Origin: Mobula birostris
Lineage: Eukaryota
Direction: 5' to 3'
DNA: 64,000 nucleotides
Assembly (NCBI RefSeq): GCF_030028105.1
Contig: NC_092380.1
Span: 11,869,123-11,933,122, forward strand
The notes under the pieces were generated by a model, which ran no database searches, was not told the DNA's origin, and saw only the letters and a program-made list of their open reading frames with translations. The position numbers and the translations under genes were made by a program. This document shows, piece by piece, positions 411 through 61,830 of the stretch. Every line of letters begins with the position of its first letter. Position 1 is the first letter of the stretch.

Positions 411-667
411 TCAGTCAATTGTATTACTGCACCACCTAGGGATAACCAGGTTTCTGATTGCTCTCTCATTCAGACTCTCGAAGGCAAACATACCCACATA
501 GATGCTCAGTTCACTTTCTCTGCCTAACAGCGGTGTTCCATCGCCTTTAGTTTCTGGAACTTCGTGGGAAGTTTCTTCACTGCCAGGATTCAGAATGGCT
601 TCCATCACCTCGTCATCAGCAATTATTTTGTCTATATCCACTTGTTTTTCCTCCTCTTGTGGGATCT
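411..667 (-). CDS. Unnamed acidic protein gene, terminal coding exon 4 (EIPQEEEKQVDIDK...FAFESLNERAIRNLVIPRWCSNTID*)
   Basis: Acceptor ttttttcacatttcag; phase-1 start matches the upstream exon; non-repeat open frame to TGA at 411-413. Confidence 0.7.
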
Positions 668-702
668 CTGAAATGTGAAAAAAGAACATTATATGCTTTC
701 AA

Positions 703-1490
703 TAGGCAATGGGTGCAGGAGTAGGCCATTCAGCCCTTCGAGCCAGCACCGCCATTCACTGTGATCATGGCTGATCGTCCACAATCAGTACCCCATTCCT
801 GCCTTCTCCCCATATCCCTTCAGTCCGCTATCTTTAAGAGCTCTATCTAACTCTTTCTTGAAGGCATCCAGAGAAGTGGCCTCCACTGCCTTATGAGGCA
901 GAGCATTCCACAGAACCACAACCCTCTGTGTGAAAAAGTTTTTCCTCAACTCCGTTCTAAATTGTCTACCCTTTATTCTTAAACTGTGGCCTCTGGTCCT
1001 GGACTCCCCCAACATCGGGAACATGTTTCCTGCCTCTAGCGTGTCCAATCCCTTAATAATCTTATATGTTTCAATCAGATCCCCTCTTATCCTTCTAAAT
1101 TCCAGCGTATACAAGCCCAGTCGCTCCAATCTTTCAACATATGACAGTCCCACCATCCCGGGAATTAACCTCGTGAACCTACGCTGCACTTTCTCAAATT
1201 TGAAGACCAAAATTGTACACGGTATTCCAGGTGTGGTCTCACCAGGGCCCTGTACAACTGCAGAAGGACCTCTTTGCTCCTATACTCAACTCCCCTTGTT
1301 ATGAAGACCAGCATGCCATTAGCTTTCTTTACTGCCTGCTGTACCTGCATGCTTACTTTCAGTGACTGATGAACAAGGACACCCAGATCTAGTTGTACTT
1401 CCCCTTTTCCTAACTTGACACCATTCAGATAGTAATCTGCCTTCCTGTTCTTGCCACCAAAGTATTTATCCACATTAAACTGCATCTGCC
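703..1490 (-). mobile_element. CR1 LINE, 5'-truncated 3' end
   Basis: RPHLEYRVQFWS, RGDLIETYKI and FFTQRVV motifs; closely similar to the 3' part of the CR1 at 42170-44260. Confidence 0.9.
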
Positions 1491-1720
1491 AGCAGCGTTG
1501 AATAGCACCTGGGCTGAATATATAATTACCAGCTTAAAAATAAAGTATATACCAAGAATTCCTCCCTGACTAGTATCAGTGCCTCTCCTTACCTAAGGCA
1601 GGAAGACTATGGGATTTTCTTTTAATTAAGGGAATTAGGGGGAACTTCCTTAATTTCCCTCCGCTTCCCATAAACATTTCTTTAGTTTCAGATGCGATAG
1701 TCAATCTGTAATGTGACATT

Positions 1721-1905
1721 AGGACACAGTGGTATAGTTCGTAGTTCTCCTGCTTCACAATCCCAGCAACCGGAGTTTCAGTCCTGCCCTCTGGTGCTGT
1801 CGGTGTGGAGTCCAAACGCTCACCCTATGGCTTCTTGGGTTGCTCCAGATCGTCCAGGTTCCTCTCACACCTTAAAGACGAGCAGGTTGGTAGGTCAACT
1901 GGCCA
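1721..1905 (+). mobile_element. tRNA-derived V-SINE/HE1-like SINE, decayed
   Basis: V-domain-like gtgtggagt...ttcctctcacaccttaaagacg...ggttggtaggtcaa; related copies at about 5283-5445, 23870-24000(-), 48390-48610(-), 50000-50290, 57095-57230. Confidence 0.6.
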
Positions 1906-1943
1906 GATCATGATTTTCAGCCAAAAATCACACTTCTTCTCAC

Positions 1944-2054
1944 CTTCCTGTTCATCCTTCTGCCCAAGAGCTCCAGAAGCAGATGCCTGGATTTCTTGTG
2001 TCTGTGAATCTCCAGCAGCCTCAGTTTCTTCTTCATTTTCTTCAGTAATTTGGT
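1944..2054 (-). CDS. Unnamed acidic protein gene, exon 3 (DQITEENEEETEAAGDSQTQEIQASASGALGQKDEQE)
   Basis: cttag acceptor, AAG|gtgaga donor; 111 nt, phase 1-1; Glu-rich like exon 4. Confidence 0.65.
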
Positions 2055-2429
2055 CTAAGGTGAGCAAGAATAAAGCATTTTTTTTACAGTGTGCTTTGAA
2101 ACCAGGTTAAGTTAGAATTAATATATATTAAATTAATTGTATCATTGATAAAGATCATGCTGTTACAGAACACTTCCACACTTCATGCATTCCCCAATGT
2201 CATCACTATCAGTGGTAGAGTCACAAGACGAGTACAACAAGAAACATCACATCAGGCTGGACAAAGCAGCCCATTTCATCAGTACACCATCAAGCACCCT
2301 AAACATTCGACTGCTCTGTTTTTGACCAAAGTCCATAAAATGCAATGCACTTAATCACCTACAGGAACACACCTACAGCAACACACTCATGAACTATCAT
2401 TTCAATTACTTTCAATTCCCTGGTCCTGA

Positions 2430-42169: not shown

Positions 42170-44260
42170 GACAATAGATGCAGGAACAGGCCATTCGGCC
42201 CATCGAGCCAGCTCTGCCATTCACTGTGATCATGGCTGACCATCCACAATCAGTACCCTGTTCCTGCCTTCTCCCCATATCCCTTCACTCCGCTATCTTT
42301 AGTCATAGTCATAGTCATACTTTATTGATCCTGGGGGAAATTGGTTTTCTTTAAGAGCTCTATCTAACTCTTTCTTGAAAGAATCCAGAGAATTGGCCTC
42401 CACTGCCTTCTGAGGCAGAGCATTCCACAGATCCACAACCCTCTGTGTGAAAAAGTTTTTCCCCAACTCCATTCTAAATGGTCTAACCCTTATTCTTAAA
42501 CTGTGGCCTCTGCTTCTGGACTCCCCAACATCGGGAACATGTTTCCTGCCTCTAGCGTGTCCAATCCTTTAATAATCTTATGTTTCAATCAGATCCCCTC
42601 TCATCCTTCTAAATTCTAGTGTATACAAGCCCAGTCACTCCAATCTTTCAACATATGACATTCCCGCCATCCCTGGAATTAAACCAGTGAACCTGCGCTG
42701 TACTCCGTCCATAGCAAGAATGTCCTTCCTCAAATTTGGAGACCAAAACTCCACACGATACTCCAAGTGGGGTCTCACCAGGGCCTTGTACAACTGCAGA
42801 AGGACCTCTTTGCTCCTATGCTCAACTCCCCTTGTTATGAAGGCCAGCATGCCATTAGCTTTCTTCACTGCCTGCTGTACCTGTATACTTACTTTCAGTG
42901 ACTGATGAACAAGGACACCCAGATCTTGTTGTACTTCCCCTTTTCCTAACTTGACACCATTCAGATAGTAATCTGCCTTCCTGATCTTGCCACCAAAGTG
43001 GATAACCTCACATTTATCCACATTAAACTGCATCTGCCAGGCATCTGCCCACTCACCCAACCTGTCCACGTCACCCTGCATTCTCATAACATCCTCCTCA
43101 CATTTCACACTGCCACCCAGCTTTGTGTCATCTGCAAATTTGCTAATGTTACTTTGAATCCCTTATCTAAATCATTAATGTATATTGTAAATAGCTGCAG
43201 TCCCAGCACCGAGCCTTGCGGTACCCCACTAGTCACTGCCTGCCATTCTGAAAAGGACCCGTTAATCCCTACTCTTTGCTTCCTGTCTGCCAACCAATTT
43301 TCTATCCATGTCAGTACCTTACCCCCAATACCATTTGCTCTAATTTTACCCACTAACCTCCTATGTGGGACCTTATCAAAGGCTTTCTGAAAGTCCGGGT
43401 ACACTACATCCACTGGCTTTCCCATGTCCATTTTCATAGTTACATTCTCAAAAAATTCCAGAAGATTAGTCAAGCATGATTTCCCCTTCGTAAATCCATG
43501 CTGACTCGGACCTATCCTGCTACCGCTATCCAAATATGCCGCTATTTCATCTTTTATAATTGACTCCAGCATTTTCCCCACCACTGATGTCAGACTAACT
43601 GGTCTATAATTCCCTGTTTTCTCTCTCCCTCCTTTCTTAAAAAGTGGGATAACATTAGCTACCCTCCAATCCGCAGGAACTGATCCTGAATCTATAGAAC
43701 ATTGGAAAATGATTACCAATGCATCCAGGATTTCTAGAGCCATCTCCTTAAGTACCCTGGGATGCAGACCATCAGGCCCTGGGGATTTATCAGCCTTCAG
43801 TCGCGTCAGTTTACCCAACACCATTTTCTGCCTAATGCGACTTTCCTTCAGTTCCTTCGTTACCCTAGGTCCTCTGGCCACTATTACATCTGGGAGATAG
43901 TTTGTGTCTTCCCTAGTGAAGGCAGATCCAAACTACCTGTTCAGCTCGTCTGCCACTTCCTTGTTCCCCATAATAATTTCACCCGTTTCTGTCTTTAAGG
44001 GCCCTACTTTGGTCTTAACTAATTTTTTCCTTTTCACATGCCTAAAGAAGCTTTCACTATCCTCCTTTATATTCTTGGCTAGCTTACCTTTGTACCTCAT
44101 CTTTTCCCCCCGTATTGCCTTTTTAGTTATCTTCTGTTGCTCCTTAAAAGCCTCCCAATCCTCTGGCTTCCCGCTCATCCTTGCTATGTTATACTTCCTC
44201 TCTTTTATTTTTATACTGTCCTTAACTTGCCTTGTCATCTACAGTCGTCCCTTACTCCCC
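42170..44260 (-). mobile_element. Young CR1 LINE, ORF2 RT region, frameshifted
   Basis: KSPGPDGLHPRVLKE, NYRPVSLTSVVGK, DFQKAFDKVPH, SGVPQGSVLG. Confidence 0.95.
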
Positions 44261-44671
44261 TTAGATGGGCCAAAGGGCCTGTTTCTGTGCTGTACTTTTC
44301 TATGGCTCTATAATAGGCAATGATAACTGAGTATACTGTACTTGTCTTAAGTTTTCACAGATATAAATTAACATAATTTAATTTTAATGCTGTCTATAAC
44401 ATGACAGTTGAGTAATGACAATTTCTTGGTCCTATTAGGCCAAAGAAGCAGTTGTATTGGAGAGGATACTGGCAAGTGTCTAGTATTGGGACTTGCTCAC
44501 GTAGCACCAGCCAACCTTCTAATTAAAATTAAAGATATTCCCATGAACAAGCATTGCAATGTCGTTGAACAATTTGTGCTTAGTTGCCACGTGTATCACA
44601 ATGTGCTCTGGCAGTATCAGAACCCAAGTGTGAACAAACAACAGATTCTGATGTAGAGAGGGCAACCAGAT

Positions 44672-44677
44672 TTTATT
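44672..44677 (-). terminator. Candidate poly(A) signal of the Ig receptor gene
   Basis: AATAAA on the minus strand about 380 nt after the stop, in unique sequence. Confidence 0.4.
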
Positions 44678-45055
44678 CAATAATAATTCCAACAGAACCT
44701 CGATGGCTCGGCCAAGCAGCACCGTGAGAAGCAACATTCTCAAAACTAGGACCCCGCGATTAGCGCTAATTGGGCGTCCGCTTACATAACACAAGTAACA
44801 CGGAATCCCCAAGCCAAATAAACCTAGCAGTTTAAACAAAAAGCACCAGGAGACCGCATTACAAAGAACGAGTCGCTCGAGAAAAACACAAGAAACTCTA
44901 AATGACTAACGACTCTCGTTAAGCAACAATTAACCAGTTCAAGTGCTGTAAAAACCTTGGAGCTCAATGCACTCTGGCCTGAAGAGCTAGAGACTGGAAA
45001 AGCACACTAAGGGATTTAATAATTCATTCATTCATTTTAAAATTATCTGTGAACA

Positions 45056-45204
45056 TTATACATTTTCTTGTACTGCCATCTCTGCCTTGTATTTCTTTGA
45101 ATCTTCCACATAGTCAGGATATAATATCCAGGTAATGAGGACAACTATGTGTAGGATAAACACAATCATCAGTCGAACACTCACTGCTATTGGCCAGAGC
45201 ATTT
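45056..45204 (-). CDS. LRC-like Ig receptor exon 4: transmembrane helix with Arg, plus short tail
   Basis: ttatttctctccattag acceptor, phase 1; EMLWPIAVSVRLMIVFILHIVVLITWILYPDYVEDSKKYKAEMAVQENV*. Confidence 0.75.
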
Positions 45205-45899
45205 CTAATGGAGAGAAATAAGGACATAATTAACTTTCAGAACAAAAAAGCAACATCCACAGAAAATATTCACTGTTAATGATTTAATCTTTATTCAGAT
45301 TTGCAAGGCAAATTTCTTGCAATTTCAAGAAAAAAAGAGGCAATTATTTTTCTTAGTCTCTGATCCTTATCATAAGTCAAGAGCTCTACAAAAAAAACTA
45401 ATTATTGAGTAATCATTGTTGTTATGCCCAAGAATAGAAACTGGAAAATCCCAAAGACTACAGAGAAAATTTGTGACTTTCTGATATTTAATTGTTACTC
45501 CAATCTGTTCTCCCCAAAGCATTATCTTTCACCCAGACCAATATCTACATCATAAAATTTTCCAGTTCTGATGAAAATTCACCAAGCTTAAACAATATAT
45601 TTTTCTCTTTCTCTGAAGATGCTGCCTGACCTGCTGGGTATTTGTAGCACGTCCTGCTTTTCTAAGGGTTAATGTCTCATCTTGATTCCCCAGAAATTGG
45701 CGCCAACACATTTGTGACCCCGCTTCTGTGTGATCTTCCAGGCCAACTTTGACCAGCAGTAAAGATTTCCTGGACTTCTCTCAGCATTTCCTACATGATA
45801 ACACCTCCGGTAATGCAGAGTTCCCTCGGCATTCTTGTGAGATGTTAGGCCAGCCCTATAGTGCGGGTAGACTCAAGTAGCTCAGAGGTGAAAATGCTT

Positions 45900-46390
45900 T
45901 CAAATGTCCAGTTTCAGGCCAGCTGATTCCCCTATGTCTATATTCTCCCCACCCGATCCGCCCAGTCCTTCCGACACCCACTCCCAGTCCCCCGGCACCA
46001 TCTCATTCCCCTTCTCTACCCACTCCGTCTGCCCATCATCAACACTGAATCCCACTGGAACCCCTTCTCCTACTGTTCCCACCTCTCTTATTTGGTTCCA
46101 TGCTCCTCCTTCCTTTGCTGTCCAATTCCATCATTTGCAGCCCTTTGGTTGCCTCCACCCATCACCTTCCAGCCACTGATACGACTTTCACTCTTCCATC
46201 CTCCATCTGCCTTTACCTCTCCTCACCTGGATGCACCTATCACTTACCAGCCCCTCCTCTACCTCAAACCCTCACCTCTTTGCTGGTTTTCTCCCCCTAC
46301 CTCTCAGTCCAGATGAAGGGAAACATTAACTACCTATTTCTCCCTGCAGATGCTGCCTGACCCCTTAAGTTCCTCCAGCAACGTGGCATC
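45900..46390 (+). mobile_element. Penelope 3' pLTR remnant
   Basis: Pyrimidine-rich tract, decayed hammerhead (cagtccagatgaaggg), gatgctgcctgac end. Confidence 0.6.
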
Positions 46391-47006
46391 TTTCAGAATC
46401 AGAATCAGATTTAATATCACCGGCATGTGCTGTGAAATCGGTTGACTTTGCGGCAGCGGTACAATGCAATACCCAGTAATAGATTATTTCATACATTGAA
46501 TTGCAGAAAGTATATGTATATTAAATAATTAAATAAGTAGTGCAAAAATAGTAATTTTAAAAAAGTAGGTGATCATGGGTTCAATGTCCATTCGGAAATC
46601 GGATGGCAGAGGGGAAGAAGTTGTTTCTGAGTCATTCAGTGTGAGCTTTCAGGCGTCTGTACCTCCTTCTTGATGGTAGCAAAGAGAAGGGTGCATGTTC
46701 TAGGTGATGAAGGTCCTTAATGATGGAAGAGGAACTGCTCCTTGAAGATGTCCTGGATACTACGGAAGCTAGTGTCCATAATGGAGCTGACTGATTTTAT
46801 AACTCTGCAGCCTACTACTCCCCAAACCAGAGAGTGATGCAGCCAATTAGAATGCTCTCCATAACACATCTGTAGAAACTTGCGAGTGTCTTTGGTGATA
46901 TACCAAAACTCCTCAAGCTCTTAATTGCCAGTGATATTAAACCTGATTCTGATTCGAAAAATGCCACATTGCTGGAGGAACTTAACCAGTCAGGCAGCAT
47001 TTGGGT

Positions 47007-47750
47007 CTTTATTCTTTGGAGCGTAGAAGGTTGAGGGGGGACTTGATAGAGGTATTTAAATTATGAGGGGGATAGATAGAGTTGACGTGGATAGGCTTTT
47101 TCCATTGAGAGTGGGGGAGATTCAAACAAGAGGACGTGAGTTGAGAGTTAAAGGGCAAAAGTTTAGGGGTAAAATGAGGGGGAACTTCTTTACTCAGAGA
47201 GTGGTAGCTGTGTGGAATGAGCTTCCAGCAGAAGTGGTTGAGGCAGGTTCGATGTTGTCGTTTAAAGTTAAATTGGATAGTTAAAGATAAAGGCATCCGT
47301 TAGTCTTGTGAGACCATGGATCTGCGCCTGGAAAGTCTTCACTCTCCAGGGCACAGGCCTGGGCAAGATTGTATGGAAAACTGGCAGTTGCCCATGCTGC
47401 AAGTCTCCCCTCTCCATGATACCAATGTTGTCCGCGGGAAGGGCATTAGGAGCCATACAGCTTGGCACCAGTGTCGTCACTGAGCAATGTGTGATTAAGT
47501 GCCTTGCTCAAGAACACAACACGTTCCCTCGGCTGGACCTCAAACTCACGACCTTCAGGTCACTAGTCCAATGCCTTAACCACCTGGCCACGTGCCCACA
47601 CGTAGATAGATATGTGGACAGGAAAGGAATGGAGGGTTATGGGCTGAGTGCAGGTCAGTGGGACTAGGTGAGAGTAAGAGTTCGGCACGAACTAGAGGGG
47701 CCGAGATGGCCTGTTTCCGTGCTGTAATTGTTATATGGTTATGTGGTTAA
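47007..47750 (+). mobile_element. CR1 3' end with a nested minus-strand tRNA-SINE (about 47284-47601)
   Basis: MRGIDRVDVDRLFPLRVGE...; the CR1 frame resumes after the SINE. Confidence 0.85.
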
Positions 47751-48859
47751 TGAAATACAGCCACTGTCTTGCCTTCTTTGTAGCTGCATCGATATATTGG
47801 GACCAGGATAGATAATCAGAGATATTGACATCCAGGAATTTGAAATTACTCACTCTCTCCAGTTCTCTCTCACTCTCTCCACTTTTTGATTTACTCTTGA
47901 TTCCAGCAGCTGCAGAGTCTCGTGTCTCTGCTTTCCATCGAGCCACGATTATAGGGTTGGCAGCTTTAAACGATCCAAGTCACGGTCTGGAAACGATTAC
48001 AGTACTGCAGTGACAGAAGTGTTTCACGGGGTGTCTAACTCTATGGAACATCCTGAGCTGGTGAAAGACACAATCGAAGTGCATGCTGTTCTCAAAGAAG
48101 CCTGTTAGTTCTAATTGATCACACAGCTGAGCTGTGGAATCAGATGCAGCCAGCTAACTTTTCTACCGGCATATTTAATGCTCTCTAGAATCTCTGAAAG
48201 CTAACACACATGGAGGCGTTAAAACAAGAATGGGATTCTTTCTCCCCCTGACTGATGTGAATTGTTGCATTTCACTGCTGGACCCTGTATTGCTTTTATG
48301 ATCCAATCAGGCTCTCCCAAGTGAGTTAGATCAGAGATTAATTCCATCCTTTTCCATTTGTTTTTGTTTGTTTGTTTATTTATTTATGGGGAAACGGAAC
48401 AGGCCCTTCTGGCCTTTCCAGCCGCACTGCCCAGCAATACCCCGATTTAATCCTCGCCTAATCATGGAGCAATTTACAATGACCACCTAACCTACCAATT
48501 GATAGGTCTTTGGACTGTGGGAGGAAACTGGAGCACCTGGAGGAAATCCACGTGGAAGAACGTACAAACTTCTTACAGGCAGTGGCGGGAATTGAACCCA
48601 GATCGTGGGTACTGCATATGAATATATACTGAATATGATGGCTCCCCCCCAGTACTTTTCACTGCCACAATACCAGCCTCACAGCCACTACAATAGCTAC
48701 ACATACGGACGCACAAACCCCCGGGTGGCCTCACCAACATCTTCCCCACTCCCACAGAGGGGTCACCCTGGAAACATTTCCTACAGCCATAGTCTCTTCA
48801 CCAATGAAAGGGACGACAGGTTTTTTAAAACCTCCGGTTACCCCATACACACTACAATG

Positions 48860-49015
48860 CCCAACTGGCACTTTCAGATTTAAACACTCTGGAGAGTGTT
48901 TTAGAAAAGCTCCATTTTCGGGGGAGGAAAACACCGTTTCAGTGTGGACGGAGGGTCAAAACGAAGAGAAAAAACTTTGGTTATGGATTTATCCGGTCTA
49001 GTGTGGACGTAGCCT
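48860..49015. mobile_element. PIF/Harbinger-like transposon end
   Basis: Terminus ...ctagtgtggacgtagcct (reverse complement aggctacgtccacactag) with internal gtgtggacg repeat. Confidence 0.5.
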
Positions 49016-49662
49016 GAGTTACCTGCTCAAGCCAGCCTTTCATCTCATACAGCCTCTGCTGAGTTTGCAGTGAGTTGCAGCCAATTCTATGAAATAGAAT
49101 CCGTTATTTCAGAAATTATAGCAAACAGATTTCAGTTTACAAGCATTCTATCATTCCCAATCCAGCATACAGGGGCAAAAATAAACTCCGCAGGCCAGCA
49201 AGATACTGGGGGGGGTGCTGGAAAACTGAAATAAAACAGAAACTGTTGGAAACACTCAGTAGGTCGGGTAGCATCTATAGAGTGAGAGAAATGGGGTTAT
49301 TATTCCAGGTTAATGACCTATACTCAGAACACAAATATATGACCAGGTTAGTGACTATTATCCAGAACACAAATATATCAGAGATATACTATAATTAGAG
49401 GCATGACAAGTATTGAGACAGGGAAGGTTGATAGGTGACAAGGAGGAGAAAAGTTTTTTCGATGGGAAGGTCATTGTTAGGGTGGAAGGGAGGAGTGATG
49501 AAATTACATTAGAGAAGATGGTGCAAAGGATATGTAAGGAAACAGAGGCCAGCTCCAGAGGAGGTGTGAATGGCAAGAGCCAACAATGACAGCAGAGGTG
49601 AGTGTAAATCTGTAAGAATCATTGCCAACAAGCGATTTAATTTTTCTTCATTATGATTGAGG

Positions 49663-49970
49663 GTGTGTTGGCACGTGGCCAAGTGGTTAAGGCGTCAGTC
49701 CAGTGATCTGAAGGTCGTGAGTTCGAGCCTTAGCTGAGGCAGCATGTTGTGTCCTTGAGCAAGGTACTTAACCACACATTGCTCTGCGACGACACCAGTG
49801 CCAAGCTGTATCGGCCCTAATCCCCTTCCCTTGGACAACATCGGTGGCGTGGAGAGGGGAGACTTGCAGCATGGGCAGCTGCCGGTCTTCCATACAACCT
49901 TGCCCAGGCCTGTGGCCTGGAAACCTTCCAAGGCGCAAATCCATGGTCTCATGAGACTAACGGATGCCTA
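49663..49970 (+). mobile_element. tRNA-derived SINE, full length
   Basis: A box TGGCCAAGTGG, B box GTTCGAGCC; 11-bp TSD tatgattgagg. Confidence 0.85.
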
Positions 49971-50369
49971 TATGATTGAGGAGAGAATATTGGGGCAACA
50001 AGGTTAGTTCAATGTTTTACAGTACCAGAAACCTGGGTACAATTCCTGCAGCCATCTGTAAGGAGTTTGTACATTCTCCCCATGACAGTGTGGGTTTCTC
50101 CCGGGTCCCATGGGCCAAGGATGTAGCGGGTCTGGGCTTAAATCAGAGGTTGCTGTCCAAAGACAAACCTGTTGGTAGGTTAATTGGCCGTTGTAAACTG
50201 GCCTGTGATTAGGCTAGGGTTAAACTGGTGGTTGCTGGGGTGACACGGCTCGAAGGGTTGGAAGGGCCCATTCCATGCTGTATCTCAATAAACACAGAAC
50301 CAATGGGAAAGTGTCCATTGCAATCAGTACAAGAGACTTCAACTGGTAATGATAGTTATATTATCAAGT

Positions 50370-50870
50370 TGGGGATTAGGGACATTATGTTGCAGTTAAA
50401 ATAGTTGTGGGTCAGGCCACACTTTGACAATTTCCATCATCCTGCTGTTGTGAAAGACATTGCCAAGCTGTAGAGGGTGCAGAAGAGATTTATGAGGATG
50501 CTACCTGAACTTCAGGATTTGGGTTATAAGGAGGGTTTTTCCTCGCTGGATCTTCATTCCCTGGAGGACAGGAGAATGAGGTAGAACAACTTATGGAAGC
50601 TTATGAAGGATATGGATAAGGTAGACAGTTATAGTCTTTTCCCTCAAGTTTGGGGAGCCCAAAACTAGAGGGTACAGATCCAAGAGGGGAGAGATTTAAG
50701 AGACCTAAGAGGCAACTTCTTTACACAGAGGGTGGTGAATACCTGGAATGAGCTGCCAGAGGAAGTGGTCAATTGAAACATTTAAGAGGCATTTGGATAG
50801 GTGCTAGGAGGGCTATGGGCTAAACATGAGACTAGCGAGAATATGTTGTGGATGTCATGGCTGTGGGCAG
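50370..50870 (+). mobile_element. Old CR1 3' fragment
   Basis: Decayed VRPH..., RVQKRFMRMLP, FFTQRVV. Confidence 0.7.
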
Positions 50871-51233
50871 CTGGACTACACACAGGTATATTCTGTGTTG
50901 TTGTATGTTACTGATATTCTATATGTGCTTGTTGTCTTGTATGTACAGGACTGGGCCTCAGGCTGCAGTGTCGCCTGGGGCTGCGGGGTGTCAAAGCCAA
51001 TGCACATCACGGGGTGGGGGGGGGGGGGGCAGTGTGGTGTAGCGTCCAGTCTGGGTCGGTGCTGCCCCCCAGTGTTCACTCGGAGGGAGACGGGCTCTAT
51101 TGTAGTTGACTGTGGATTGAAGGCACGAGTTTTGATTGTGATACTATTTGTGCATTCTTTGTGCTGTGTGTGACTGTTGGTATTGTGTTTTGCACCTCGA
51201 CCCAGGAATAATGCTGTCTCATTTAGCTGTATT

Positions 51234-54197
51234 CCATATAACCATTTAACAATTACAGCATGGAAACAGGCCATCTCGGCCCTTCTAGTCCATGCCGAAC
51301 TCTTACTCTCACCTAGTACCACCGACCTGCACTCAGCCCATAACCCTCCATTCCTTTCCTGTCCATATATCTATCCAATTTAACTTTAAACGACAACATC
51401 GAACCTGCCTCAACCACTTCTGCTGGAAGCTCGTTCCACACAGCTACCACTCTCTGAGTAAAGAAGTTCCCCCTCATATCACCCCTAAACTTTTGCCCTT
51501 TAACTCTCAACTCATGTCCTCTTGTTTGAATCTCCCCTACTCTCAATGGAAAAGGCCTATCCACATCAACTCTATCTATCCCCCTCATAATGTTAAATAC
51601 CTCTTCCAAGTCCCCCCTCAACCTTCTACGCTCCAAAGAATAAAGACCTAACTTGTTCAACCTTTCTCTGTAACTTAGGAGATGAAACCCAGGTAACATT
51701 CTAGTAAATCTTCTCTATAATCTCTCAATTTTGTTGACATCTCTCCTATAATTCGGTGACCAGAACTGTACACAATACTCCAAATTTGGCCTTACCAATG
51801 TCTTATACAACCTCCCCATAACATCCCAACTCCTATACTCAATGCTCTGATTTATAAAGGCCAGCATACCAAAAGCTTTCTTCACCACCCCATCCACATG
51901 AGATTCCACCTTCAGGGAACTATGCACCATTATTCCTAGATCCCTCTGTTCTACTGCATTCTTCAATGCCCTACCATTTACCATGTATGTCCTATTTTGA
52001 TTAGTCCTACCAAAATGTAGCACCTCACATTTATCAGCATTAAACTCCATCTGCCATCTTTCAGCCCACTCTTATCCACAACTCCACCTATCTTAGTATC
52101 ATCTGCATACTTACTAATTCAATTTACCAACCCATCATCCAGATCATTAACATATATGACAAACAACATTGGACCCAGTACAGATCCCTGAGGCGCACCA
52201 CTAGTCACCGGCCTCCAATCTGACAAACAGTTATCCACCACTACTCTCTGGTGTCTCCCATCCAGCCACTGCTGAATCTATTTTAATACTTCAATATTAA
52301 TACCTAACGATTGAACCTTCCTAACTAACCTTCCATGTGGAACCTTGTCAAAGGCCTTCCTGAAGTCCATATAGACAACATCCACCACTTTACCCTCGTC
52401 AACTTTCCTAGTAACCTCTTCAAAAAACTCAATAAGATTTGTCAAACATGACGTTCCATGCACAACTCCATGTTGACTGTTCCTAATCAGACCTTGTCTA
52501 TCCAGATAATTATATATACCATCTCTAAGAATACTTTCCATCAATTTACCCATCACCGACATCAAACTCACAGGCCAATAATTGCTAGGCTTACTCTTAG
52601 AACCCTTTTTAAACAATGGAACAACATGAGCAATACCCCAATCCTCTGGCGCCATCCCCGTTTCTAATGACATTTGAAATATTTCTGTCAGAGCCCCTGC
52701 TATTTCCACACTGACTTCCCACAAGGTCCTAGGGAATATCCTGTCAGGACCCGGAGACTCTTATCCACTTTTATATTCCTTAAAAGCTCCAGTACTTCCT
52801 CTTCTTTAATTGCCATACTTTCCATAACTACCCTTCTTGTTTCCTTTACCTTACACAATTCAATATGCTTCTCCTTAGTGAATACTGAAGAAAATAAATT
52901 GTTCAAAATCTCCCCCATTTCTTTTGGCTCCGCATATAGCCATCCACTCTGATTCTCTAAGGGACCAATTTTATCCCTCACTATCCTTTTGCTATTAATG
53001 TCATAAGGAGGTGGCTGGGAACGGACCCAAGTGCAAGACACAGACACTGAAGTACTAGGGACAGGACTAGGATACAGGCTGAGGGCAAGGACATGGACAT
53101 GAAAAGCAGGAACCCGGAACAGGTCCGGACAAGAGAGCTAGGAGCCCAGGCTTGGACTCCGAGCATGAGACTGGACAAGGACCCAGTACCTGGGTCTTGC
53201 CTCTGGCTCAGACCCCAGAACTAGGCAAGGACGAGGCTTGGCTGGCAGGTAGGATGAGGCTGGAGTCTTGGAGACTTGAGGTGAGAAACTAGAGGCAAGG
53301 CTTGGCAGGAGGCAGGAGGCTGGAGTCTTCAGGCTTGAGGCTAGAGGCTAGAGTCTTGAGGTGAGGCTTGGCAGGAGGCAGGAGGCTGGAGGCTCCTGCT
53401 GGGCAGGGCGCGGTCCCCCTGGGCAGGGCGCGGTTCTCCTGGGCAGGGCGCGGTTCTTCACCCAACAGAGGCAAGGGCCAGGAAGGGACAGAACCAACCG
53501 CAGGTAACGGCAGGATGGCCTGGCTTACCCGACAGAGGCAAGGGACAGGAAGGAACAGAACCAACCGTAGGTAACGGCAATACGGCCTAACTTACCCGAC
53601 GGAGGCAAGGGACAGGAATGGAGCTAGGTACAGGGTGGCTCCAGGACAAGACTGAAGGCGAGACAAGGCGAGAGTTACCAGCAAGACCAGGCAATGCTTC
53701 AGGCAATGTGAGGCGAAATGAGAACTTCAGGCGAGGTGAGAGTTACTGGCAAGAGAAGGCAAGGCTTCAGGCGAGGAAACAGAAGGCAGAGGAAGGGATA
53801 CAAGGAGTAAGGACAAGAACAATCCAGCAGCCGTGCCCTGGTCTCTGAAGGCATTTAAGCAGCCAGCCCCAACGAGCATCAGCTGACTCAATTAGAGCTC
53901 AGCAAGAACAGAAACAGGGTAGACAGGAAAACCTGGAGCAAGGGTCGATGGACTGGTCCGTGAACCGGAATAGACTTCACGGACCGGACCATGACAATTA
54001 ATATAACTGTAGAAACCCTTTGGATTTATTTTCACCTTACTTGCCAAAGCAACCTCATACCTTCTTTTAGCTTTTCTAATTTCTTTCTTAAGATTCTTTT
54101 TACATTCTTTATATTCCTTGAGCACCTCATTTACTCCAAGCTGCCTATACTTATTGTAGATCTCTCTCTTTTTCCGAACCAAGTTTCCAATATCCCT
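51234..54197 (-). mobile_element. CR1 LINE ORF2 fragment interrupted by a solo LTR
   Basis: DFRKAFDKVPHGRL, RPNLEYCVQFWSP; reading continues across the LTR. Confidence 0.92.
52999..53996 (-). mobile_element. Solo LTR of an LTR retrotransposon
   Basis: TG...CA ends (tgtcat...atgaca); 5-bp TSD attaa; internal tandem repeats (gggcagggcgcgg)x3. Confidence 0.85.
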
Positions 54198-54470
54198 GTA
54201 TTCATGTATGGTTGAATGACAATTAAACTTGCATTGAACTAGTTGGGCTGAAGGGCCTGTTTTCCTGCTGTATTACACTATGAAATGACCGAACAAGTAA
54301 TAAATATAAATTACTTCCAACCCATCTGCAGTTTGGAGCAGCAATAATAGGTCTGAAATTGTTGAATGCTATTTCCAGATGTCTGTAATATATCCAGTTG
54401 AAGAATGAGATTGTTCCCCCAGAGATTACATTAAGCTTGGTCAGAGCAGTCCCCGAGGACAAGGACTCAC

Positions 54471-54758
54471 CTGTCACGGTCAGATGCACATAACGACTGT
54501 GGCTTGACACCACAGACTTGGAGATCTGATACCGGCAGGAGTAAACGCCTGAATCATAGACGGTTACAATTTGGATCTCAAAGGCCACATTAGAACTGTT
54601 TCCCACTTCGTTTATGAATCGCAGATCCGAGCCTTCTTTGTAGAGCATGAAGTGTGTGGGTGGGTCCGGTCCAGGAGCTACGCATGTGAATATAACAGAG
54701 TCTCCGAGTGCTGAACCAGATGATGACTGAATCACGTGCAATAAGGGCTTAGAAGCTT
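54471..54758 (-). CDS. LRC-like Ig receptor exon 3: Ig (C2/I-type) domain
   Basis: EASKPLL..GDSVIFTC...FMLYKEG...DSGVYSCRY..S..S..VHLTVT; 288 nt, phase 1-1; CAG|gtgagt donor. Confidence 0.9.
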
Positions 54759-55219
54759 CTTCAAAAAAAACACGGAAGGATAATTAAATCATTTTAAGTG
54801 AATTGTAAGATTTTCATTAGATCCGCTCTTCCTTTCTTACTCCTCTGCTTAAATTCTGGTTCTAGATACTGCACCTCCATCGCGAGGAGAAGTTCTCACT
54901 ATCTACCCCATCTATTGTTAGCAGTTTCCCCCTCTGCCTCACCTGCTCTAAGGAAAACAATCCAATCTCTCCTGAAACATCCCACCACAGCCAACATCCT
55001 AGTAAGTATCCCCGGCACCCTCTGCAGTATATTATCCTACCTTTTGCCCATCAGAACCGAACACAATATTCCGACTGTGGCCTAACCAAAGTTTTTAAGA
55101 GTTGTACCGTGACTCCCATACTCTGATGTTCTGCGCCCCAAACTGAAACAGTAACTTTAGAGTTAGAGAAAGTTATCAGATACTGTACTTCCTTCACCCT
55201 TTTAGATCCAGGCACTGAC

Positions 55220-55255
55220 CTTTGTTTCCGGCATCCCGGAATCCAGACGCGCGGG
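55220..55255 (-). CDS. LRC-like Ig receptor exon 2: 36-nt leader mini-exon (ARASGFRDAGNK)
   Basis: ttttttcattacag acceptor, AAG|gtcagt donor; exactly 36 nt, phase 1-1. Confidence 0.75.
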
Positions 55256-56032
55256 CTGTAATGAAAAAAAAACCTGACAGTTCAGTCACAAAAAAAAGTA
55301 TCAACGCAGAGAGATTGCATGCAGATGTTGTCAGGGTTATGAGTACATTAAATCAATATTAGCTTTATTTGTCACAAGTACACCGAAATGCATCGTTTGC
55401 GTCAACGACCAACACAGTCCGAGGATTATGTCGGCGGCAGCCCGTGGTGTCGCCAAGCTTCGCGCCAGCGAGGTAAAAATGGTGGTTGTCCGTCCTGTCC
55501 GACAATGACGGGAAACCTATGCGGGAGAGTTTTTAAAGAGCGGGCGGTTCCAGTCTCTCGAACTCCGAAGTCCGTGTTCAGTGGTACAAACAAGCATCAC
55601 AAACTGGAGCCTTCCTTGGTTACAGTGAATGACCACGACGTCTTCTGTGCCCTGTCATGTCCCGCGCTCTCCACGGAGCCTTGCAGTATCGCCTTCCTGG
55701 CCGCTGGACCTCACTGCAGATCCCATCCGCAGGCCCACAACTTACAACCCTAAACCATGCGTCTTTTGAAATGTAAGAGGAAACCGGAGCACCCACCGGG
55801 TGATGGGAAGAACGCGCAAACTCCGGCGGGAATTGAGCTACCGGTCTTACTGTCGGTGTTGTAAGGCGTTGCGGATAACCGCTACTGTGCCGCGTATTAG
55901 TGTGTGAACAGCCGCACTTAGTGCTAATTGCACTCAAAACAACTATCTGGATGTGCATTAAAACAGCAGAACTTCCTAAAACTTCACAAGAACATCCTTG
56001 GCATAGGGTGACTCCCAGGAATATTAGGAGGT

Positions 56033-56877
56033 TGTCATGGTCCAGTCCGTGAAATCCACGTTCTAGTTCACGGGCCGGTTCATCGATCCTTATTCCGGGT
56101 TTTCCTGTTTTCCCTTGTTCCATTGGGTGCCTTAATTGAGGCACCTGATTCTTGTTTTGGGCTAGCGCATAAATATCTCTGCAAACCAAGGATTCCCCGG
56201 CTGGACTGTTCCCTTCCCCTCCCCATCTGAATCCCTGACAGTTTCCACGGCGGTCACCTCGGCAGTCATCCCGGCCCTGCGCTCCAAGGAGGGTCCCAGC
56301 TCCGTACCCAAGAGCCTAATCAAACCTAGTCCAAGAGCCACGTCCTGTGCTGGAGTTCCCTCGTCCTGTCCAGGAGTCTCTCATCCAGTCCAGGCCATGT
56401 CCAAGTACCTTATCTAGTCCAGGCCACATCCAAGTACCTCATCTAGTCCAAGCCAAGTCCTAGAACCTCGTCTTGTCTAAGCCTAGTCCAAGAACCTCGT
56501 CCTGTCCAAGTCAAGGCTTTGTGTTCTCGTCCTGTCCATGTGCAGGAGTTCCACGTCCAGTCCTGTAGCCATGTCTTGTCCCCGCCTAGATCCAGGGTCC
56601 GAGCCCGAGTCAAGACCCAGGTTTCTGGTCCCTGTCCAGGTTCTAGCTCAGAGTCCAAGCCCAGGCTCCTAGCTCCAAGTTCCTTGTCCAGTTCCTGCTT
56701 TCCTAGTCTTAGTCCTAGCCCAGGCCCAGTGTCCTTGTCTCGTCCAGGGCCCGCGTCCATGTCCAGCTTCGTTTCTTCCTGACTCCCCTTGCTTTCTTGA
56801 TAAACCTTGACCTGTTCCTAGTACTTCAGTGTCTGTGTCCTGCACTTGGGTCCGTTCCCAACGCCCCCCTTATGACA
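56033..56877 (+). mobile_element. Solo LTR, same family as 52999-53996, opposite orientation
   Basis: tgtcatggtcc...cttatgaca; 5-bp TSD gaggt; shared ctagtacttcagtgtctgtgtc..gcacttgggtccgttccca end. Confidence 0.85.
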
Positions 56878-58284
56878 GAGGTATTGGAGCAGGTATTTTC
56901 AAGTTGCACTCCCAATCAGAAACATGTGGATGAGAATGGGGGTGGGGGGAGCAATAAAATATCCCTGAGCGACATCAGGGTGGAGTGGGAGGAGTATCCA
57001 TTTCCTGCTACCACTTCATGAGGATGGAACTGGGGCTGGGTGAACCCACCCAGATGGGCAATAACAGGCACACAGCAGAACCGCTGCCTCCCGGGTTCCA
57101 TCCGGACCTCAGGCTGCCGCGCGTGTGAAGTTGACACGTTCTCCCCGTGACCTGTTTGGTCTTCCCTCGGAGAGCTCCAGTTTCTTCCCACCCCTGAACC
57201 GTGCTGGTCTGCCTGCATTTGTGTGTGGGACAATTTAGAGTGATCTGATAGACGTGCAAGAGAGATTAATTTACAGGAAAATCAGCGAGGGGTTGAGGCT
57301 CGTGGGTAAACTGTGGAAAGCCTTCATAAACCCGACGGGTCGCCCTTCGCTGAATCGTTATAAGTACTGGCCATCCCCGGGTTACAAACACTCGATTTAC
57401 AGACACCCTGACATAAGAACTAGAACGTTATTAAATTCAGACATCCCGGTATATGTACCTACGCTCGTCCCTGGGAACAACACTACTAACTTCCACAAAC
57501 TGCTGGAGAAACGCATCAAGCCAGGCAGCATCTATGGAAAAGTTTCGGGCCGGGATCCTTCATCGAAACGCCCAAAGTTTACCCTTTACCATTGGCGCTG
57601 CCCGACCTGCTGATTTCCTCCAGCATTTTGTGTGTGTTGCTTTGGATTTCCAGCGTCTGAAGATTTTCCTGTGTTTACTGCTAAATTCCTCTCTCCGCGT
57701 TTAGTGCACGTCCTTAATTGCGCTTTCTTATCAATCCTATGCGCCTTTCGCGCCATTCGTTGCAACACTGTCGAGGTGTGGTTATTATATCGAGTGATTT
57801 TGCGCGCTTTCCGACTTGCGGACAAAATCGCTTTCTGGGCTTCTGTAAAAAGGGGTCCCGTTCGATCCCTACGCTGGTGTTGTTGCGCTCAGACGTATGG
57901 GGATTAATGACTGCCCCCCACCCCCACTAGCGCTCCCTCAAAACGAGTAACACTCATTTCCACCATCAGTGAATTACGGGCATAGGACACATCAGCCACA
58001 CTAACCTAATGTCAGTGACAGTGAAAACCATATACATTTTAAACAGTCCCAGGGCGCTTATAGAACTGTGACACTACGGAGAGAGGCCCGTGGGTGCTTT
58101 GACCGTAAAATACCTCTCAGGCATCAGTAGAGCCGGGAGAGAGTAAACGACGACTCCCTGTCCCGACTTTTACTATTGGCGTCCCGGGAATTGTCATCCG
58201 TTCAGAGTGGTTTAACAGCAGTGCCCTTCGCCACTGGGAGAACTTGCCTTTGACGAGGTTATCGATGGAGGTGTACATACTCAC

Positions 58285-58312
58285 CAATTAATAAAACAGC
58301 CAGGAGCAACAT
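58285..58312 (-). CDS. LRC-like Ig receptor exon 1: signal peptide MLLLAVLLI
   Basis: caaaATG start, hydrophobic leader, TTG|gtgagt donor, phase 1. Confidence 0.78.
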
Positions 58313-58439: not shown

Positions 58440-58500
58440 CATCTCGGAATTCCCAGTGATTTCAGAGAAACCGCCACAGTATCTATAAATAGCTGTTGCC
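58440..58500 (-). promoter_or_regulatory. Candidate promoter of the Ig receptor gene
   Basis: TATTTATA on the minus strand at 58484-58491; NF-kB-like gggaattccg at about 58445-58454; CpG-enriched unique region. Confidence 0.4.
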
Positions 58501-59021: not shown

Positions 59022-61830
59022 TATAAGACCATAAGACTTAGGAGCAGAATTAGGCCATTTGGCCCATCGAGTTTGCTCCGCTATTCAATCATGCCTGATC
59101 CTTTTTTTTCCTCCTCCTCAACCCTATTTCCCGGCCTTCTCCCCGTAACCTTTGATGCCATGTCCAATCAAGAACCTATCAATCTCTGCCTTAAATACAC
59201 CCAATGACCTGCCCTCCACAGTTGCACATGGCAACAAATTTCACAAATTCACCACCCTCTGGCTAAAAAAAATTCCCTGCATCTCTGTTTGAATGGACGC
59301 CCCTCTATCCTGAGGCTGTGCCCTCTTGTCCTAGACTTTCCCACCGTGGGAAACATCCTTTCTACATCTCCTCTTTATAAGCCTTTCAACATTTGAAAGG
59401 TTTCAATGAGATCCCCCTTCATCCTTCTAAATTCCAGTGAGTACAGACCCAGAGCCATCAAACGTTCCTCATATGATAACCCTTTCAATCCTGGAATCAT
59501 CCTTGTGAACCTCCCCTGGACCCTCTCCAATGCCAGCACATCTCTTCTAAGATGAGAAGCCCAAAACTGTTCACAATACCCAAGGTGAGGCCTCACCAGT
59601 GCCTTATACAACCTCAGCGTCACATCTCTGCTCCTGTATTCAAGACCTCTTGAAATGAATGCTAACATTGCATTTGCCTTCCTCACCGTCAACTCAACCT
59701 GCAAGTTAACCTTCAGGGTGTTCTGCACAAGGACTCCCAAGTCCCTTTGCATCTCAGATTTTTGGGTTTTCTCCCGGTTTAGAAAATAGTCTGCTAATTT
59801 ATTAATACTCCCAAAGTGCATGACCATGCATTTTCCAACATTATATTTCATTTGCCACTTTCTTGTCCATTCTCCTAATCTGTTTAAGTCCTTCTGCATC
59901 CTACCCGTTTCCTCAACAGTATCTGCCCCTCCACCAATCTTCGTATAATCTGCAAATTTGGCTACAAAGCCATATAATTCATCATCTAAATTATTTACAT
60001 ACAGCATAAAAAAAGTGGTCCCAAAATCGACCCCTGTGGAACACCACTAGTCACTGGCAACCAACCAACCAGACAAAGATCCTTTGATTCTCACTTGCTG
60101 CCTTCTTCCAATCAGCCAATGCTCTAACCATGTTGGTAACTTTCCTGTAATACCACAGGCTCTCAACTTGGTAAGCAGCCTCATGTGTGGCACCATGTCA
60201 AAGGCCTTCTGAAAGTCCAAATATTCGACACCCACTGCATCCCCTTTATCTATCCTGCTTGTAATCTCCTCAAATAATTCCAACAGGTTCATCAGACAGG
60301 ATTTTCCCTGAAGGAAACCATGCTGACTTTGTCCTATCTTGTCCTGTGTCACCAAGTACTCCATCACCTCATCCTTAGCAATTGACTCTAACTACTCAGG
60401 TCAGGCTAACTGGTCTATAATTTCTTTTCTGCTACCTTCCTCCTTTCTTAAAGAGTGGAGTGACATTTGCAATTTTCCAGTCCTCTGGCACCATGCCAGA
60501 GTCCAATGATTTTTGAAATATCATTTCTAATGCTGCCACAATCTCTAACGCTACCTGTTTCAGAACCCTAGGGTGCAGTTCATCTGGTCCGGGTGACTTA
60601 TGTACCCATAGGTCTTTCAGCTTTTTGAGCACCTTCTCCCTTCTAATAGCAACTACACCTACTTCTCTTCCTTCACACACTACAACATCTGGCACACTGC
60701 TAGTGTCTTTCACAGTGAAGGCCGAAGCAAAATATTCATTTAGTTCATCTGCCATCTCCTTGTCCCCCGTTATTATTTCTCCTGCCTTACTTTCTAGCGG
60801 TCCTGTATCCACTCTCATCTCTCTTTTATTTTTTACATAGTTGAAAAAGCTTTTACTATCCACTTTGATATTATTTATTAGCTTGCTTTCATGTTTCATC
60901 TTTTCCCTTCTAATGATTCTTTTAGTTGCTCTCTGTAGGTTTTTAAAAACTTCTCTATCTTCCCACTAATTTTTGCTTTGTTGTATGCCCTCTCTTTTGC
61001 TTTTTCAGTAGCTTTGACTCCCCCTGTCAGCCATAGTTGTACTATTTTACCATTTGAGTATTTCTGCACTTTTGGAACACACATGTCCTGCACTTTCCTC
61101 ATTTTTCCCAGAAATGCACACCATTGCTGCTCTGCTGACATCCCTGCCAGCATCTCCTTCCAATTTACTTTGGCCAACTCCTCTCTCATACCACTGTAAC
61201 ATCCACTGAAATACTGCTATATCAGACTTTACCTTCTCCCTATCAAATTTCAAGTTGAACTCATCATATTGTGATCACTGGTTCCAAAGGGTTCTTTTAC
61301 CTTAAGCTCCCTAATTGCCTCCAGTTTATTACATTACACCCAGTCCAGTATAGCTGATCCCCTAGTAGGCTCAATGACAAACTGCTCTAAAAAGCTATCT
61401 CTCAGGCATTCAATAACTCACTCTCTTGAGATCAATGATCAACTTGATTTTCCCAATTGACCTGCATGTTAAAATCTCCCATATGACTATCATAACATTG
61501 CCCTTTTGACATGCCTTTTCTATTTCCTGTTGTAATCTGTGGTCCATCTCCCAGCCACTGTTGGGAGGCCTGTATATAACTGCCATCAGGGTCCTCTTAC
61601 CCTTGCAGTTTCTTAACTCAACCCACAAGGATTCAACGTCTTCTGATCCAATGTCACATCTTTCTACTGATTCGATGCCATTCTTTACCAGTAAAGCCAC
61701 GCCTCCCCCCTCTGCCTACCTTCCTATCCCTCTGGTACAATGTGTGACCTTGGAGATTCAGCTCCCAACTACAACCATCTTTCAGCCACAATTCAGTGAT
61801 GGCCACAACATCATACCTGGCAATCTGTAT
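59022..61830 (-). mobile_element. CR1 LINE, most of ORF2 (AP endonuclease plus RT), disrupted
   Basis: LWVELRNCKG..VIYRPPN, KSPGPDELHPRVLK, DFQKAFD, FADYTK. Confidence 0.95.

Follow-up and report, generated by a model that had tools for sequence, protein, structure and literature searches.

The genome of the manta ray Mobula birostris carries a four-exon gene for a small membrane protein with one immunoglobulin (Ig) domain. The gene lies on the minus strand of a 64,000-nucleotide window (contig C13, NC_092380.1; C13:11,869,123-11,933,122), and positions below are those of the window unless a contig is named. It is real and spliced; it has been annotated automatically but is unstudied, and receptors of its likely type are barely described in cartilaginous fish. 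Sequence comparison indicates that the product is likely an activating receptor of the type encoded in the leukocyte receptor complex (LRC), with a transmembrane (TM) type of its own, conserved across cartilaginous fish and encoded away from the LRC-like cluster that the same genome carries on contig C34. On balance, it is read here as an LRC-type activating receptor that would signal through the adaptor FcRγ.

Gene structure and transcripts

Four exons of 28, 36, 288 and 149 nt, separated by introns of 3029, 461 and 9266 nt, join into a 166-aa open reading frame (ORF); each of the introns has GT-AG ends and phase 1. An earlier sequence-only reading had proposed this join, a spacing of 48 residues between the two cysteines (Cys47 and Cys96) and a cartilaginous fish source. 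All three proposals are borne out: the joined ORF has the spacing and is identical, letter for letter, to RefSeq XP_072129103.1 (Mobula birostris, 'uncharacterized protein'). That only one exon appeared in the ORF track is an effect of exon size but not the sign of a missed gene, as RefSeq has it. The existing annotation was overlooked in that reading, as were the off-cluster position, the two-domain orthologues and the charged TM segment. The features of the gene are as follows.

58484-58491, minus strand: candidate TATA-like box 5' of exon 1 (inferred, read from the sequence)
58285-58312, minus strand: exon 1, coding part, with start codon and signal-peptide hydrophobic core (sequence, RefSeq model)
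55220-55255, minus strand: exon 2, phase-1 mini-exon of 36 nt, end of the leader (minus-strand scan, contig of run X6)
54471-54758, minus strand: exon 3, single C2-type Ig domain (Pfam, structural model, RefSeq isoforms X1 and X2)
48041-48057, minus strand: alternative last exon, used in the RefSeq isoform X3 of 122 aa, which lacks a TM segment (RefSeq model)
45056-45204, minus strand: exon 4, coding part, TM helix and tail (sequence; spliced to exon 3 in runs X1, X4 and X6)
45173-45175, minus strand: codon of Arg128 in the TM segment (orthologue alignment, depth comparison)
45149-45151, minus strand: codon of His136, mid-TM (orthologue alignment)
44667-45055, minus strand: 3' untranslated region (UTR) with AATAAA at 44677-44672 (contig of run X4, motif scan)

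Exon 3 has a leucine at the position of the C-strand tryptophan and, at Asn75, its single N-glycosylation motif. Use of a tandem acceptor 3 nt further into this exon gives a 165-aa RefSeq isoform; the third isoform (X3, 122 aa) would be secreted, as it has no TM segment. No RNA support for the X3 terminal exon is seen in the runs examined. This exon is not repeat-masked in the 664 kb covered, and none of the four coding exons is masked.

Eleven public runs contain the Ig exon; none is on record as RNA, and their RNA nature is a guess. Four of them (X1, X4, X6 and X9), with no tissue or library record, were examined at the locus. Contigs from three of the four (X1, X4 and X6, from two studies) jump from 45204 to 54471 and omit the 9266-nt intron; in X9 the Ig exon is only partly covered. 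The contig of X4 spans 44667-45204 and ends just past the AATAAA motif. Ahead of the Ig exon, the contigs carry exactly 36 nt (X6), 131 nt (X1) and 174 nt (X4), and these ends make it likely that the 5' UTR reaches about 100 nt beyond the coding part of exon 1. Of the three junctions that the sequence-only reading proposed to check, that of exons 3 and 4 is seen directly in the contigs; the exon 1-2 and 2-3 joins are supported indirectly, by the fit of the contigs, by RefSeq and by a mini-exon scan. That scan covered the minus strand of the 64-kb window; among symmetric phase-1 exons 18-60 nt long and bounded by strong splice sites, it finds the 36-nt exon as its only candidate.

Orthologues and the transmembrane segment

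Orthologues with the same domain and the distinctive TM segment are found in the stingray Hemitrygon akajei (84%), a Logan record (58%), the sawshark Pristiophorus japonicus and the chimaera Callorhinchus milii. In sawshark and chimaera the protein carries two Ig domains; in the manta it has one, the membrane-proximal one. The manta domain pairs with the membrane-proximal domain (D2), and tblastn over 464 kb of C13 detects no remnant of a distal Ig exon, so the simplest explanation would be that batoids lost the distal domain of a two-domain ancestor. No orthologue outside cartilaginous fish is found among 11 matches from 6875 candidates, or among the best 150 of 563 in a second listing; both are weak evidence of absence. 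A homologue search among longer proteins yields none in 226 candidates. Automatic annotation names the sawshark protein 'FCRL1' and the stingray and chimaera proteins 'IGSF1-like'; automatic 'IGSF1-like' names are called misleading in passages of PMC6557307.

The chimaera has several copies of the receptor, in two forms. P0044 and P0187 combine a Lys and His TM segment with a short tail, and P0186 combines a near-identical ectodomain with a neutral TM segment and a tyrosine-containing tail; the two forms sit on contigs equal in size. From sequence, this layout has the appearance of paired receptors, and the manta gene may have originated as the activating half of such a pair.

The manta TM helix spans approximately residues 121-146 and is followed by a tail of some 20 aa that carries no immunoreceptor tyrosine-based inhibitory or activation motif (ITIM or ITAM); a motif scan of the tail finds no ITIM or YxxL. 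Among the five aligned orthologues, a basic TM residue is present in four (Arg in manta, sawshark and the Logan record, Lys in chimaera) and replaced by Gln in Hemitrygon. His136 is invariant in all five and is the sole invariant polar TM residue. Between the basic residue and the first cytosolic charged residue the distance is 18-20 residues; the Arg of the NxxR motif in LRC-type TM segments lies at 17-20. This NxxR Arg pairs with FcRγ (passages of PMC6557307). The genome contains TM exons closest to two candidate adaptors:

C18:98.44 Mb (L098:1489-1581), plus strand: TM exon closest to FcRγ
C7:39.29 Mb (L097:1504-1608), minus strand: TM exon closest to CD3ζ

A predicted complex of two FcRγ TM chains with the receptor's TM region (residues 114-152) scores 0.05 against a mark of 0.34 and is uninformative either way.

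The proposed product is a small type I membrane protein whose single Ig domain is likely of LRC (LILR/OSCAR/CHIR) type; it would be displayed on leukocytes. Its TM Arg would pair with FcRγ and deliver an activating signal; signalling through an adaptor is predicted because the tail has no signalling motif. Both leukocyte expression and adaptor pairing are inferred. Activating, FcRγ-coupled function is the best reading because of the depth of the TM basic residue, the short tail, the FcRγ exon and the chimaera pair. By analogy, the nearest models for a ligand would be single-domain CHIR-AB1 (Ig Fc) and OSCAR and LAIR1 (collagen).

Other cartilaginous fish proteins show related features. Hemitrygon akajei P0002, P0005 and P0006 carry Arg instead of the C-strand Leu and Gln instead of the TM Arg; by sequence, the function of the Hemitrygon orthologue is possibly relaxed. 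Shark P0147, P0140 and P0047 are LRC-like receptors with an Ile-Arg-Leu...Glu TM segment that resembles the NxxR activating type. The P0036 cluster of Cetorhinus maximus (25 members) is expanded and joins SRCR-type names with LRC-type Ig domains; the TM segment of P0036 resembles a manta TM exon on C34 at 18,033,770. A multi-Ig protein of LITR type, P0072, has a similar Trp...Arg...His pattern, either as a shared ancient TM type or by chance.

Ancestry of the Ig domain

The manta gene family is probably of LRC-type ancestry. This placement is favoured because of the fold, the best single-domain PDB match and the maximum likelihood tree. The Ig domain model has a predicted local distance difference test (pLDDT) score of 90.4 from an alignment of 26 rows. 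Of the 998 chains ranked by VIA-align, the first 50 are LRC receptors without exception (Z 15.0-12.8; root-mean-square deviation (rmsd) 1.3-2.1 Å over 83-92 residues). Foldseek agrees: the ranks shown down to 28 are all LRC, and FcγRIIb follows at rank 33 with a TM-score of 0.69, compared with 0.85 for OSCAR. In this model, built from an alignment rich in C34 domains, the fold is closest to LILR, KIR, OSCAR, LAIR and CHIR domains.

Pfam assigns Ig_2 to the manta protein at 45.7 bits, together with Ig_3 and a marginal Ig_C19orf38 match (23.7 bits; cut-off 23.2). The best single-domain PDB score is that of CHIR-AB1 (29.8 bits); FCRL5 comes first in the whole-protein ranking only by summing nine domains, the best of which scores 16.3 bits. 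Chimaera P0186 aligns to D1-D2 of LILRB1 in one stretch at 54 bits.

Trees were built with FastTree (215 domains) and IQ-TREE (74 of the 215), in which some reference proteins were labelled by their database names and the remainder by motifs (labels partly the author's own). In the IQ-TREE analysis, the manta domain clusters with sawshark and chimaera D2 (98/91, starred), and the family falls inside a 48-row LRC-type group (82/81, unstarred) that contains no FCRL, PECAM or LITR rows. The corresponding FastTree group (138 leaves, 0.81) holds 1 of 20 FCRL, 0 of 14 PECAM and 0 of 20 LITR domains. The domain phylogeny advised in the sequence-only reading favours an LRC-type group in both trees, but approximately unbiased (AU) tests reject no alternative.

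Several characters that the sequence-only reading had taken as LRC markers discriminate less well. The spacing of the two cysteines fails as a family marker, as it overlaps across all groups compared. Leu at the C-strand Trp position occurs in 8/10 domains of the family and 36/38 of the tetrapod LRC set, but also in 5/14 PECAM and 5/20 FCRL domains, and Phe too stands in for this Trp in PECAM- or FCRL-type domains; 18/20 LITR-type domains keep the Trp. A signal peptide split over two exons and one phase-1 exon per Ig domain are present in the manta gene, and split signal peptides with one exon per Ig domain are reported as an LRC gene feature in passages of PMC3601082. The split leader is not diagnostic of the LRC, because it is common to FCRL genes; passages of PMC2413239 describe it there with a 30/21-nt leader-exon rule, the 21-nt second leader exon occurring in mammalian FCRL1-6 and in a fraction of Xenopus genes. 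The second leader exon of the manta gene is 36 nt long, against 21 nt in FCRL genes. The sequence-only reading takes a 36-nt second leader exon as typical of LRC genes; such a rule is absent from the literature passages checked, and the sole mini-exon mapped in the C34 cluster, that of a paralogue, has 33 nt.

A number of observations weigh against an LRC-type, FcRγ-coupled receptor. On the side of lineage, AU tests give p 0.30 for FCRL-type placement, 0.30 for LITR-type and 0.52 for a position outside the LRC-type group, and an FCRL-labelled profile scores 68 bits on the manta domain versus 59 for the tetrapod LRC set. PDB rankings are mixed for the sawshark protein (FCRL5, PirB, JAM1, LRIG1) and the Logan orthologue (LRIG1, CHIR-AB1). 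As 22 of the 26 rows in the model alignment are manta C34 domains, the fold may be biased toward that family; a single-sequence AlphaFold model is poor (pLDDT 57). On the side of function, the manta TM segment lacks the Asn of an NxxR motif, Gln replaces the TM Arg in the Hemitrygon orthologue, and the tail motif of chimaera P0186 resembles an ITIM but fails the strict consensus. The gene lies outside the C34 cluster, and none of the genes nearest to it (WBP11, PDE6 gamma and FMC1) flanks the LRC.

An LRC-type receptor that works without FcRγ is the most serious alternative, though an unlikely one. In such a receptor, the invariant His rather than the Arg would pair with another adaptor (CD3ζ or DAP12/DAP10) or self-associate, or the one-domain batoid form would be a remnant, non-signalling or a decoy, with a soluble isoform in addition. 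The invariance of His136 alongside the Arg-to-Gln change in Hemitrygon fits this explanation, as do the missing NxxR, the TM-less isoform modelled by RefSeq and the absence in batoids of the distal domain or, within the 464 kb, of any remnant; nor is a close inhibitory sibling present among the matches listed in the manta genome. However, four of five orthologues keep Arg or Lys at a depth that matches the LRC Arg, and conservation of the TM segment from chimaera to rays fits a binding constraint.

A different ancestry would be a still less probable explanation: the gene would belong to the FCRL/FcR side, or to a chondrichthyan branch that predates the LRC-FCRL split. FCRL5 leads several whole-protein PDB searches, the FCRL-set profile scores highest, and both FCRL (p 0.30) and basal (p 0.52) placements survive the AU tests; the LITR-type P0072 has Arg...His in its TM segment, and the sawshark protein bears an automatic FCRL1 name. 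Yet the FCRL5 score is a nine-domain sum, no FCRL or FcγR chain is among the top 50 structural matches, the forced FCRL grouping is 9.3 log-likelihood units worse, and the mini-exon has 36 nt rather than the 21 nt of FCRL genes (passages of PMC2413239). Orthology to HIDE1 (C19orf38), a single-Ig membrane protein, is very improbable. It draws on the marginal Pfam match above its cut-off and on a HIDE1 cluster at the top of the Atlas ranking (0.96), but Atlas ranks 1-6 are tied at that score and include LILR and KIR clusters; moreover, a sturgeon HIDE1-like protein has a neutral TM segment and a long tail, and clusters with a coelacanth protein instead of the manta family. The LRC-type, FcRγ-coupled receptor is retained as the preferred reading in what follows.

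Genomic position and known systems

The gene order on C13 is class C G protein-coupled receptor exon, CNOT3, PDE6 gamma, CCDC96/113-like gene, WBP11, Ig gene and FMC1. CNOT3, at C13:11.67-11.72 Mb, is 190.8 kb from the Ig gene; it flanks the mammalian LRC (passages of PMC6557307). The Ig gene is single-copy by genome search: neither a further close copy nor an inhibitory sibling is present among at least 6 manta matches in one search and at least 31 in another. All but one of the remaining matches to the domain family lie on C34 at 15.8-19.8 Mb (5/5 in one search, 29/30 in another). Neighbouring and related features are as follows; the exons of FMC1 and WBP11 are unnamed by Pfam and were named via Atlas (0.90) and PDB.

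11983-33361, minus strand: gene of WBP11, which begins its coding sequence at exon 33361-33296, some 11 kb downstream of the Ig gene
414-2106, minus strand, and locus L029: acidic 5' exons, likely of a CCDC96/CCDC113-like gene running left of the window
C34:15.8-19.8 Mb (L002-L006, L067-L086, L088-L096, L099-L118): LRC-like cluster (genome search)

Decayed reverse transcriptase fragments of LINE type, with very high read depth, lie within and near the Ig gene, at 42600-44320, 51300-52800 and 59380-61700 of the window.

The C34 cluster contains 55 Ig exons in the 400 kb sampled around matches, with multi-domain genes and neutral TM exons; no convincing match to an activating-type TM segment is found in the sampled DNA. 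A tRNA-endonuclease gene (19.23 Mb) and a Tweety gene (19.35 Mb), likely TSEN34 and TTYH1, lie beside it. C34 is likely the manta LRC because its Ig exons lie beside these two genes. NDUFA3 is on C38 (71.29 Mb); PRPF31 and RPS9 were searched for and no placement was obtained. The block that flanks the mammalian LRC is split over three manta contigs (C13, C34 and C38), and the Ig gene lies outside the LRC gene cluster, which TTYH1 and the TSEN34-CNOT3-NDUFA3 block border.

A 2014 survey, in the passages of PMC4016189 that treat sharks, found no LRC-type C2 receptors and no FcRγ there and dated both to bony fish. The manta gene, its orthologues, the C34 cluster and the FcRγ exon argue that LRC-type receptors and FcRγ are older than bony fish. 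It is possible, if doubtful, that an ancient, paired chondrichthyan LRC-type family with its own activating TM segment (Arg/Lys and invariant His), kept next to CNOT3 from chimaera to rays, survives from the ancestral LRC locus and, with the C34 cluster and the FcRγ gene, shows that the common ancestor of jawed vertebrates already had a full LRC-FcRγ system of paired receptors. If true, this would offer candidates for the unidentified NK-cell or Ig Fc receptors of sharks.

A small single-copy receptor found across chimaeras, sharks and rays is an easy handle for work on adaptors and ligands. The weight of the finding is limited by the presence of the gene in RefSeq and of shark proteins already automatically named LILR-like; the larger lead is the C34 cluster. 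No literature on this receptor family or on an elasmobranch LRC was found in a search of paper texts that covered few subscription journals; the supplementary gene tables of shark genome papers may contain such genes. Wang et al. (2021, Immunogenetics) reportedly describe an LRC-like gene in elephant shark, which may concern this family.

Among known receptors, chicken CHIR-AB1 also has one Ig domain and a charged TM segment, and its fold is similar (Z 14.2, rmsd 1.7 Å over 91 residues). The two share approximately 32% identity; CHIR genes form a large cluster, whereas the manta gene stands alone and has no ITIM. CHIR-AB types carry an ITIM too (passages of PMC10764270). The activating mammalian LRC receptors OSCAR, LILRA, GPVI, NKp46 and FCAR resemble the manta gene in fold, split leader and one exon per domain; they likewise encode the TM segment and short tail in one exon, with an equally deep basic residue. 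Unlike them, the manta TM segment has no NxxR, DYT or acidic TM-end residue and has the invariant mid-TM His; it follows one domain rather than two or more.

FCRL5, other FCRL proteins and LITR-type fish receptors share C2-type domains of similar length and a split signal peptide. They differ in the 21-nt FCRL leader exon, in the C-strand Trp of LITR domains (18/20) and in falling outside the top structural matches.

Chicken ggFcR and mammalian A1BG and IGSF1 encode LRC-type domains at sites apart from the main cluster (passages of PMC6557307), as does the manta gene. Their neighbours differ from those of the manta gene (CNOT3, PDE6 gamma, WBP11 and FMC1), as does their architecture. The Ig gene is best read as an off-cluster LRC-type member, like ggFcR, A1BG or IGSF1.

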